Source: a virus
Lineage: Duplodnaviria > Heunggongvirae > Uroviricota > Caudoviricetes
Reading direction: 5' to 3' (one strand)
Virus record (IMG/VR): IMGVR_UViG_2713896908_000004
DNA length: 14,162 nucleotides
Part shown: positions 1 through 3,000 of the stretch, in pieces
Layout: each line of letters opens with the position of its first letter
Position numbering within the stretch: the first letter of the stretch is position 1
Position numbers: made by a program

Positions 1-3000
1 GCCCCACCACCAATAGCAGCTGCAACAGCCTTGCGTAATGATGGCGACATTATTCACCTCTCGCAGCCTTACGCTTGTCTTCTTTTATCTTGAAATAAAG
101 GTTTGTCAGGTACGTCAGCAGGCCAAACACCAGACTACCCAGCACGCCTATTGCCACCCATTGGGATGGGGAGACTTTGTCCAGCAGTTGCAGTAACCAG
201 TATCCCGTCCCCACCGCTGACGTGGTGTATGACACACCTGTTGTGATTTTTTCCATCTGGTACATACCCCGTCTCCCGTTATCCGGAAGTTGACAACAAT
301 AAAAAGCCACCAGTTAATTACTGATGCCCCAGGTATCCTATTATCGGACCGGTGTTGACGATTTCGCATAATCGTCAACACCAACCAAATATAAGCATAT
401 CCAATTGAAATATTTTCCGGTTAAAACTTAGGAAGAGTCTCTGTTCCCGTACATACTGACTTTTTCAGAGCACAGCCCCCCCCTTCATCGCATCAACAAT
501 TGAGTAGAGGCTTATTTATTACACTGATTTTATTATCAAAGTTGTTATCAGGTTATCTGTATAAAAATCCATGTATAACGATTATATCTACAATAAAATA
601 GATATTATTCGCAATGGCGTATACATAAATCAGTATAAGGTTGATAACAATATATCCTAATCAATAGGAATATATGCTTGACAATTACTATTACTATCAA
701 ATAAAAAAGAAATTAATATATAGCTTCTCCACTGAGGGCCTTCCTCCGCCAGCGCAGATTTATTTTCCCATTACCCTCTGTACTGGCGTTTTTTTATTAC
801 GATACTGTAGAGCGATTCGTGCCTCCCCCACCACGATCACACCGTCAATTGCCAAGGGATAATACTTTATTTACTAATCTTCATTCTTCTCCCATAAGCA
901 CGGATAACGACACAAAACAGAGCAGAAAAGGTACAGAATAATCATCTCTTTGCAATCTGAATAAAAAAAAGCTGCGCGATGCGCAGCCTGCAATAACAGG
1001 AATGAAGATAATATGGAATAACATTAGGATATATGTATGGTGTCTCTCGCGGTGAGTTCGATCGATGTCACAGCTCCACATACCTACACCGATGTCCCAC
1101 GAGCAAGAAAGCTCACCATACGACACTCTTTTTAATAAACATCCAATGAAAAAATCAAGCATTACTTATACCGATTTTTATCTCAGACCACAATAATGTC
1201 ACAATCCAGCGCACAAGAAGTGGTAATACTCTGGCAATCACTTATCGGATCTTTCGTTCTTCCTGGTCAACCTTACCATCCGTACAGATAACCAAATAAG
1301 GCACGTTAATTACCATCTGAGTCAGTTCCCGCTTTTAAAGAGTTGCATCCTTACAAACTTTTTACCCAAGATACCGGACATTGCGACGCACCTTTGTTTG
1401 GATGTACCAGCTCCCAAAAGCAATCTACCCACACAGAAAATCACACCTATCACTCCACAAACTCCCCACACAGGAGATTTTGTTGATATGCATCGGGCGA
1501 ACATATATAAAAAAAGCTCGCCGAAGCGAACCTGATTATGAATCTGGAGCGGGCAGCGGGAATCGAACTGGTGACCTACTGATTACAAGTCAGTTGCTCT
1601 ACCTGCTGAGCTAAGTCGGCACTGGACCGTCACCGAGGACTCGAACCTCGCACACTCAACTTAGAAAGTTGATGCTCTTTCCTGATGAGCTAGTGACGGC
1701 TGGTGGCCCTTGCTGGATTTGAACCAGCGACCTGGCGATTATGAGTCGCTCGCTCTTACCACTGAGCTAAAGGGCCGAGCGAGGAATGATAATCATATCT
1801 AACAAAGGCTGCAATCCCCCCATGACAAACCTGATTCACTCCTATGCTTTGATTACAATTCAATAACAATATGCAGTCTGCCATCAAAAAAGCAACACCT
1901 ATGTTACTCCAAGGATATTTTAGCGTACTCGAACCACATTAATCTCAAAGCTATCAGTACGTCCTATGTTATATATGATAAAATTTTTACTGCTATCATT
2001 GAACGATCTGGACAACACCAAACGATCATCATAACGAGCAAGAACATAATACCAGATATTCTCATAGTAGAGAGTCTGATATTCTTTCTTAAACTGAGGT
2101 TTATACCAACCAGCAATAAGTGAAAATGCCCAGAAATAAAGCATAAATCCGACCATAACACACTCAATCCTGTGATGACGAATAAAAGACACTTCTGCAA
2201 TACATTTAATAGAAATAAATCTCCTACTTAATCTGATAAACAATGTAATTATTAATGCGGAAATAATACACAATATCAGTGCATCTGGTACAAACTGTTG
2301 ATGAATTACTGAAAACTCCAGAGCGAGAGGAACAAAAAGCAGTAGTATCGCAAGAAAAAGTCTAATAAAACTCAAATCCTGCATATTATTTTTTTGTTTA
2401 ATACCCAGAAAAAAAACAACACCAATTCCCCAGCCCATCAGGAATATGACAATAACAGTAACAGCATAAAACAAACTTCTGGCTACATCATCAGCACCAG
2501 CCCCGACAACCCACCATGGAAATCCGTAGTAAAAGGAAGTGCCCCAGCCATAAAAATAAGCACTCCCCCACCCAAGAAATCCCATATAGGCAATAAAAAG
2601 CGAAGACTCTCTGAGTAGTGCACCACCCTTCATAACCACCTCAACACAAGATGATAACATTTGGCTCACAACTCATAGCAAAAGCAATTCAATGTCGTCA
2701 AGAGAATGCAGGCTAAAAAACATCACATAGCAGCCAGCATGTTTACCGTACAAGTACAACTCAGGGCATAAAAAAACCCACTCGGCAGCGGGTTTATACA
2801 TTTTTTACAACATACCAAATTTGCATAAAGCATATGGCTTTTAATCCAGTTTTGCAATATTTTGCTGTAAAAATGCTGCCTTTTGTTTTGAACGTGTTCT
2901 CGTCACAAGCAATAAAGCATCACTATCAAGCTGTAGAAAAATGTGCTTCATTGCAACCCAGCGTTCAGTAAATGTCTCGGACCAGTTTTTTGTTGTCACT

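Follow-up and report, generated by a model that had tools for sequence, protein, structure and literature searches.

The closest counterparts of the transfer RNA (tRNA) array considered here are found in Shiga toxin (Stx) phages and other lambdoid phages of the 933W type, where a trio of genes, ileZ-argN-argO, lies in the late operon downstream of Q and before the stx or lysis genes. These are the gene names given to the members of such arrays in the literature on 933W; we found no open-access paper using the names ileZ, argN and argO and no relevant open-access literature on lambdoid tRNA-Thr/tRNA-Gly modules, and the accounts of Stx-phage tRNA genes that could be found were generic descriptions only. 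Stx2 phages are described as carrying one tRNA-Met(CAU) and two tRNA-Arg genes near stx (PMC7946995). Here we analyse an array of this kind in a 14,162-nucleotide stretch of viral DNA (IMG/VR record IMGVR_UViG_2713896908_000004), the whole of which is called the window, and in particular the third and last member of the array, which tRNA finders name tRNA-Thr. We hold with high confidence that this third tRNA is a non-functional hybrid, produced when a lambdoid prophage whose host was probably Escherichia albertii recently lost 78 base pairs (bp) from its late-region tRNA array.

The deletion belongs to a well-known type of event. Replication slippage between short repeats is an established and largely RecA-independent mechanism of deletion (PMC4948707; PMC7145654), and the case described here resembles other deletions of this class, which arise by slippage or template switching, in that one repeat is lost together with the interval, the repeat is short (10 bp) and rich in G+C, the spacing is below 100 bp and the event recurs at one site. 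It differs from the usual case in that the repeat is the universally conserved T-loop of tRNA, so that two different tRNA species are joined in register and tRNA finders still respond to the product. This is ordinary gene decay and no new kind of RNA; as far as our searches show, this Thr::Gly hybrid and its recurrence have not been described before, although neither is remarkable.

Composition of the third element

Judged by its sequence, the third element is the 5′ part of a tRNA-Thr(UGU) fused within the T-loop to the 3′ part of a tRNA-Gly(UCC). The Thr part, which covers the 5′ strand of the acceptor stem, the D arm, the anticodon arm, the variable loop, the 5′ strand of the T stem and the T-loop, is identical to the parental Thr gene at 62 of 62 positions, and its sole difference from thrU of Escherichia coli K-12 is C16. 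The last 14 nucleotides (nt) of the element, CGCUGCCCGCUCCA, are the 3′ end of the neighbouring tRNA-Gly and contribute the 3′ strands of the T stem and of the acceptor stem, the discriminator U and the CCA end. The match to the Gly 3′ end is in fact exact over the last 24 nt, which, together with the complete identity of the Thr part, argues that the element is not a chance match.

The switch from one gene to the other can be followed by alignment with phage arrays. Three phage records (vB_EcoS-689R5, vB_EcoM-606R7 and PhiR47_1) match the array of the window, and the match ends at window position 1559, inside the T-arm. When ARAGORN was run on the fetched sequences of 689R5 and PhiR47_1 it found four tRNAs in each, with a CAU tRNA and an argN-type tRNA followed by Thr-UGU and Gly-UCC. 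Against these arrays the window tracks the Thr gene through GTTCGATTCC and then switches to CGCTGCCCGCTCCA of the Gly gene. Each of the two genes, Thr and Gly, contains within its T-loop the 10-nt sequence GTTCGATTCC, which reads GGAATCGAAC on the plus strand of the window. The fused element carries no substitution relative to its two parental halves, and no compensatory change. A direct repeat, GCGGG-CA-GCGGG, had been remarked at this point in an earlier note on this DNA; the repeat is real, lies at 1549-1560 on the plus strand, and is the reverse complement of the T-stem 3′ strand (CCCGC) and then the acceptor 3′ strand (UGCCCGC) of glyT.

The intact parental array and the 78-bp deletion

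To find a parental form we searched IMG/VR for DNA in which the 3′ end of Gly runs directly into the downstream flank of the window. A single contig (L009) was returned, and the same junction had no match among the species-representative genomes. The array of L009 reads Met(CAU)-Arg(UCU)-Thr(UGU)-Gly(UCC) and is followed by the window-type terminator flank; its Thr and Gly genes are 3 nt apart and score 72.2 and 64.8 bits, respectively, with the Rfam tRNA model. Across 9,042 bp the window and L009 are 99.94% identical apart from 78 extra bases in L009. The alignment falls into two BLAST segments, in which window 1-1568 corresponds to L009 487-2053 and window 1559-8480 to L009 2122-9042, each 99.94% identical, and the two segments overlap by exactly 10 nt (window 1559-1568). 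The overlap and the extra bases together show that the deletion ran from one 10-bp direct repeat to its second copy 78 bp away.

Further relatives were located with the gene for a 237-residue membrane protein directly upstream of the array as a handle. Ten NCBI loci (L011-L020) that encode the identical neighbour protein are 96.4-99.9% identical to the window, and all ten carry the intact four-tRNA array. In nine of them (L011-L018 and L020) the alignment splits into two segments with the same breakpoints as in L009, while L019 aligns solely upstream of the junction because its downstream flank differs. Near-identical relatives with an intact array thus number eleven, L009 and the ten NCBI assemblies, one of which is the chromosome of Escherichia albertii 2012EL-1823B (CP030783.2; PMC10673567). 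When the window array and its flanks were compared with complete E. coli genomes by megablast, no record reached 80% coverage; the exact arrangement is missing there because it occurs in E. albertii, which is not part of that collection. The host of the window is therefore likely to be E. albertii.

These comparisons suggest how the third element may have arisen. The ancestral array, transcribed from the Q/pR′ side towards the lysis genes, would have consisted of tRNA-Ile2(CAU), tRNA-Arg(UCU), tRNA-Thr(UGU) and tRNA-Gly(UCC) followed by a terminator. The presence of GTTCGATTCC in both T-loops gives a 10-bp direct repeat with a period of 78 bp, and misalignment of the two copies would have removed one repeat and the whole interval, so that Thr positions 1-62 are now followed by the 14 nt that end the Gly gene. 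The most likely route would be strand slippage or template switching during replication, that is, a classical RecA-independent short-repeat deletion, although the data show the geometry of the deletion and not its enzymology.

Hybrid tRNA ends can also be made by site-specific recombination, and it might be supposed that the third element is the scar of an integrase with an att site in the 3′ end of glyT that acted on the Thr gene and left an attL-like hybrid at the border of an inserted element. Integrases commonly target the segment from the T-loop to the 3′ end of tRNA genes, and in attL/attR hybrids, as in the element here, the 5′ part of a tRNA meets 3′ sequence of foreign origin within the T-loop or close to it. 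In this locus, though, there is no insertion: the flanks on either side run collinear with those of the intact relatives (99.9% identity), the only change is the loss of 78 bp, and the parental halves are 3 nt apart in the parent. No integrase gene is found nearby, where the neighbours are Q, a TfpB-like protein and a holin, and the foreign 3′ part restores no pairing, the origin of the hybrid being an internal deletion. We consider the collinearity of the flanks to rule out an att-site scar and give that explanation next to no weight.

Pairing and fold of the hybrid

The earlier note had described a three-tRNA array at 1545-1776, and ARAGORN and Rfam both confirm it at exactly these coordinates. 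The two tRNAs that had been folded by hand, CAU and UCU, score well and are more stable than shuffled sequences (Table 1); the minimum free energy (MFE) structure of tRNA-Arg(UCU), which is separated from the third element by a gap of 2 nt, is a clean cloverleaf. The proposal that the CAU tRNA is of the Ile2 type, and not the tRNA-Met that ARAGORN reports, gains support from prophage genes that differ from it at one position (75/76 nt) and that the NCBI Prokaryotic Genome Annotation Pipeline (PGAP) annotates as tRNA-Ile.

For the third element, counting pairs in the cloverleaf bears out what had been seen by eye. The D stem (4/4 pairs) and the anticodon stem (5/5) are intact, and the loop CUUGUAA presents the anticodon UGU. 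The acceptor stem forms four of seven pairs (1:72, 2:71, 4:69 and 6:67), with mismatches at C3.C70, A5.C68 and U7.U66, and the T stem forms two of five pairs, compared with four of five in the parental Thr, while the T-loop sequence UUCGAUU and the CCA end are both kept. In the thermodynamic ensemble the probability of the 1:72 pair is 0.005 for the third element and 0.998 for the intact parental Thr. The MFE fold of the element is not a cloverleaf and its stability is no better than that of shuffled sequences (z = -0.82), a result that rules out an alternative stable fold. The energy of the cloverleaf itself was dropped as evidence because the treatment of non-canonical pairs by ViennaRNA makes that figure unreliable; pair counts and ensemble probabilities were used instead.

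The programs nevertheless accept the element. Its Rfam score of 39.0 bits passes the gathering threshold of the tRNA family RF00005 (29 bits), yet it is 33 bits below that of the intact parental Thr (72.2). The element reaches this score because the 5′ three-quarters of the molecule are intact, not because it has a canonical fold, and the Rfam alignment marks non-standard pairs nowhere but in the acceptor and T stems. A tRNA finder and a covariance model had been put forward as the means of settling the status of 1545-1620; ARAGORN returns a tRNA-Thr call and Rfam a score above threshold that does not reflect a canonical fold, so that this test does not discriminate. The case matters for annotation, since two standard tRNA finders label as tRNA-Thr what is very probably a dead hybrid, and automated pipelines can thus over-count phage tRNAs, while comparison with a near-identical relative settles such a call at once.

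Could the element still be a functional tRNA-Thr(UGU) of non-canonical structure, for instance one whose mismatched acceptor stem is accepted by the machinery of phage or host? This had been the alternative to a chimeric or decaying tRNA in the earlier note. In its favour are the ARAGORN name and the Rfam score, together with the intact D arm, anticodon arm, T-loop sequence and CCA end and the four acceptor pairs that are left. What speaks against it is that the unpaired 3′ strand is the exact 3′ end of Gly, placed there by a deletion absent from the eleven relatives and not by selection. The collapse of the acceptor and T stems, the acceptor helix probability of 0.005, a fold no better than shuffles and the lack of compensatory changes point the same way, as does the extreme rarity of the junction, an identical copy of which (in strain EPSSH018, see below) is not called by PGAP. 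With a foreign 3′ strand, collapsed pairing and a rare junction, we regard a functional tRNA as very unlikely. The description as chimeric or decaying was the right one, the intact parent having been recovered and the element being a Thr(UGU)::Gly(UCC) fusion made by a 78-bp deletion.

The preferred reading, a hybrid without function, accounts for these features as follows. The hybrid keeps the D and anticodon arms of Thr and lacks complementary 3′ strands for its acceptor and T stems, so that the stacked acceptor/T-arm needed by RNase P, for maturation of the CCA end, by threonyl-tRNA synthetase (ThrRS) and by EF-Tu could not form. We classify the element as a tRNA pseudogene, a hybrid of adjacent tRNA genes inside an array related to ileZ-argN-argO, because its acceptor stem and T stem fail even though the Rfam threshold is passed. 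The make-up of the fusion, its intact parent, the breakpoints with their repeat, the lost pairs, the rarity and the recurrence are direct results, and slippage as the mechanism, the lack of function and the effects on processing and fitness are inferred.

Rarity and independent recurrence

The 29-nt sequence across the fusion junction had no match in 185,579 species-representative genomes, in IMG/VR or in the metagenomes of the Joint Genome Institute (JGI), and among 50,697 phage records none spanned the junction. Of 5,426 complete E. coli genomes a single one contains it, that of strain EPSSH018, in which the copy lies in a prophage and has no PGAP annotation. That copy carries T16 as thrU does, in contrast to C16 in the window and its relatives; it is not preceded by Met or Arg genes, and the sequence after it is of the 689R5 type and unrelated to the flanks of the window. 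An intact counterpart of the EPSSH018 locus exists in strain JP538, in which 300 of 301 flank bases are identical, the Thr-Gly pair is intact and the locus is exactly 78 bp longer. The geometry of the deletion at the 10-nt repeat is the same between EPSSH018 and JP538 as between the window and L009. As each fusion has its own near-identical intact counterpart, the two are independent events, and the T-loop repeat appears to behave as a deletion hotspot. The locus is a clean natural case in which closely packed tRNA genes are prone to deletion at their conserved T-loop, with the same 78-bp loss having occurred twice independently.

The intact phage-type Thr-Gly junction, by comparison, is common: 886 of the 5,426 complete E. 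coli genomes contain it, and it occupies 1,081 places in them. The fusion is thus a rare and recent variant of a common module. As a separate observation, E. coli M9 (NZ_CP010196.1 870984-871026) and E. coli 2020N21-246-1 (NZ_CM125665.1 2964998-2965037) contain the Thr-Gly junction with the Gly gene alone, or neither gene, marked by PGAP; further decayed versions of the Thr-Gly module may exist in E. coli prophages.

The second occurrence bears on whether the deletion in the window is real. A sequencing, amplification or assembly artefact could have removed 78 bp at the 10-nt repeat from a genome whose true array has four tRNAs, and the near absence of any other difference from L009 and L011 (99.94% identity) would agree with this, as would breakpoints within a short repeat, where polymerases can jump in vitro. 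A repeat of 10 nt is, however, far too short for assembly collapse; the identical junction also lies between different flanks in a finished E. coli chromosome of independent origin, which indicates an event that occurs in vivo or is at least reproducible; and short-repeat deletions of such size are a well-documented class of natural mutation. We therefore judge an artefact improbable.

Recurrence might instead be read as the trace of a selected role other than that of a tRNA, in which the fused RNA serves as a decoy or regulator, for instance against an anticodon nuclease. The identical junction in two independent prophage lineages and the intact anticodon arm would suit such a role. The position of the junction is, though, set by the only long repeat common to both genes, so that recurrence is expected from mutation alone, and the fusion is found twice against more than 1,000 intact copies, with no sign of spread or divergence afterwards and with a predicted fold of no special stability. 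A selected role seems highly improbable to us. A more specific idea is that the phage keeps the fused RNA, in which the D and anticodon arms of tRNA-Thr(UGU) are intact, either as a stable decoy that draws a tRNA-targeting nuclease of the host defence or as a regulator, dependent on processing, of the upstream tRNA-Arg(UCU) and of late-operon read-through; this is likewise very doubtful.

Several points weigh against the view that the third element is a dead hybrid made by slippage. The label "non-functional" is a judgement drawn from predicted structure, and ARAGORN and Rfam each still call the element a tRNA above threshold. The surviving pairs G1-C72 and C2-G71 are identity elements for ThrRS; they survive by coincidence, and some residual recognition of the badly folded RNA by ThrRS is formally conceivable. 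That the junction arose twice could be read as selection and not as a mutational hotspot. A template switch in vitro, or a mistake of assembly at the 10-nt repeat, would leave the same trace as the deletion proposed here, and the geometry of the deletion is compatible with slippage, with single-strand annealing and with RecA-dependent exchange over very short homology.

Relation to the ileZ-argN-argO trio and to host thrU and glyT

The window array is like the trio in its first two members, the CAU tRNA matching at 75 of 76 nt and the second member being a clear homologue of argN, and the flank after the array, including a terminator hairpin, is about 75% homologous to the flank after argO in E. 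coli prophages. It is unlike the trio in its third member, which is not argO, a tRNA-Arg(UCU), but a thrU-derived gene with the 3′ end of glyT, so that the downstream flank alone is of argO type. Decayed argO was considered as an origin of the third element and ruled out, since the element is derived from thrU. The parental array also had four members and not three, the last two being copies of the host genes thrU and glyT that in the window are fused and, very probably, dead. The comparison with trios of ileZ-argN-argO type proposed in the earlier note thus holds for the first two members and the terminator flank and fails for the third position, which never held argO and was occupied by copies of thrU and glyT. 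We interpret the array as a mosaic relative of the classic trio in which thrU and glyT copies have replaced argO. A common late-region module of lambdoid prophages has four members, Ile2-CAU, Arg-UCU, Thr-UGU and Gly-UCC.

The hairpin 3′ of argO in prophages of NZRM4169 and MBT5 differs from the window hairpin at 1514-1533 by paired changes (GGUUCGC/GCGAGCU versus GGCUCGC/GCGGGCC). Such paired changes in the stem suggest a functional terminator that closes the tRNA cluster within the late operon.

The source of the last two members is evident from the host operon thrU-tyrU-glyT-thrT-tufB. E. coli phages, 689R5 among them, carry Thr and Gly genes with 100% identity to K-12 thrU and glyT, while the copies of the window lineage (L009) differ from them by one substitution in Thr and two in Gly. 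The Thr substitution in L009 is C16 in place of U16; those in the Gly gene (2030-2104, minus strand) are a D-loop C to T and C31 to U, the latter keeping 31:39 as a G-U wobble. The 3-nt spacer of the phage pair (CCA-TAT-G) is the remainder expected if tyrU and its 116-nt spacer had been excised exactly from host thrU-tyrU-glyT (L001 1409-1562; L004 189-548). Unlike the host operon, the phage pair lacks tyrU, thrT and tufB and shows no flank homology past the mature tRNA ends; its genes lie in a phage late operon, and in the window the pair has collapsed to a single hybrid.

The second member of the array varies in its own way. Its body is constant in the window (1623-1699, minus strand), L001 and L002 (1565-1641), L007 (1782-1857) and L006 (1783-1859), and its anticodon loop is variable. 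The loop is UUUCUAA (Arg UCU) in the window and in L009-L020, CCUUUAA ("Lys" UUU, with an unusual C33, and often unannotated) in 689R5, PhiR47_1 and MBT5, and CUUCGAA (Arg UCG) in NZRM4169. This variation looks like anticodon switching, or decay, within one lineage of phage tRNA.

Codon use and probable consequences of the loss

The four parental tRNAs read the codons ATA, AGA, ACA and GGA. In 15 open reading frames (ORFs) of the window these occur at 12.7, 12.7, 17.7 and 19.5 per 1000 codons, respectively, compared with 2.4, 1.2, 5.4 and 6.0 in 42 K-12 genes. The four NNA codons are thus over-used three- to ten-fold (Fisher p from 1e-9 to 2e-16), with ACA and GGA used about three times more by the phage than by host genes. 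This enrichment fits the view that phage tRNAs compensate for differences in codon usage (PMC7946995).

Judged from these assignments, the deletion would cost the phage its own decoders of both ACA and GGA, and the phage would then rely on host thrU and glyT for these codons. The cost is probably small because the host genes, which are near-identical to the lost copies, remain. A second consequence may concern the neighbouring gene. Polycistronic tRNA precursors of E. coli are often separated by RNase P cleavage, and as RNase P is no longer expected to cleave at the misfolded third element, which begins after a gap of 2 nt beyond tRNA-Arg(UCU), the 3′ maturation of that tRNA may be impaired.

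Late-operon context

The window is a piece of a lambdoid prophage, as seen from its lambda cIII thermoregulator and from an early region that is 97% identical to phage 434 and lambda hybrids. Because the thermoregulator lies on the plus strand and the early region can be aligned in this way, the minus strand is the rightward, or late, strand. From the position of the Q gene, the array belongs to the late (pR′) transcription unit; it follows Q and precedes the lysis genes on the late-transcript strand, and the relatives have the same order. Along the late transcript the order is Q, a tR′-like terminator, the 237-residue protein, the tRNA array (1776-1545), a hairpin with its T7 run, a remnant of the start of a TerB-family gene, and a holin. 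The coordinates of these features and of the parts of the fusion are collected in Table 1.

Table 1. Features of the array and of the surrounding late operon, with positions in the 14,162-nt window
Feature	Position	Strand	Evidence
tRNA(CAU), ileZ homologue of predicted Ile2 type, intact first member	1701..1776	-	ARAGORN (as tRNA-Met); Rfam 72.5 bits; fold z = -4.71
tRNA-Arg(UCU), homologue in the argN lineage, intact second member	1623..1699	-	ARAGORN; Rfam 53.5 bits; z = -2.97
Third element, anticodon UGU, named tRNA-Thr	1545-1620	-	ARAGORN; Rfam 39.0 bits
5′ part of the fusion, tRNA-Thr(UGU) positions 1-62	1559..1620	-	Identical to the Thr gene of L009 and L011-L020
3′ part of the fusion, end of tRNA-Gly(UCC), CGCTGCCCGCTCCA	1545..1558	-	Identical to the 3′ end of K-12 glyT and of phage Gly genes
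Deletion junction, one surviving copy of the 10-nt repeat GTTCGATTCC (plus strand GGAATCGAAC)	1559..1568	-	Overlap of the two BLAST segments against L009
Terminator-like hairpin, UUCG loop then T7, directly after the array	1514..1533	-	Hairpin scan
Class II holin, S21 type, first lysis gene downstream of the array	50..265	-	PF04971, E = 2e-32; 71 residues in relatives
Gene for a 237-residue multi-pass membrane protein, directly upstream of the array	1920..2633	-	ORF call; PF27470 (TfpB) in precomputed hits
Terminator-like hairpin in the tR′ position, just 3′ of Q	2774..2795	-	Hairpin scan; position relative to Q
Antiterminator Q gene	2841..3530	-	PF06323, E = 1.7e-91; 229 residues as called in relatives
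Lambda cIII thermoregulator RNA element	13674-13732	+	RF01804, full-length match, 88.5 bits

The 237-residue membrane protein gave no match in the local copy of Pfam, despite its precomputed TfpB entry. In the collection, 288 blocks list this exact protein, and at 10 loci it adjoins an intact array.

Between the array and the holin, a short stretch of the window at 1340-1400 (minus strand) is homologous to the start of a TerB-family gene that lies 3′ of argO in the NZRM4169 and MBT5 prophages; the frame closes after about 19 codons in the window, and the stretch is apparently a gene remnant. On the far side of Q, a gene for the lipid A deacylase LpxR (4003-4962, plus strand) is a moron, lying on the strand opposite to the surrounding phage genes, and is also present in phage 434.

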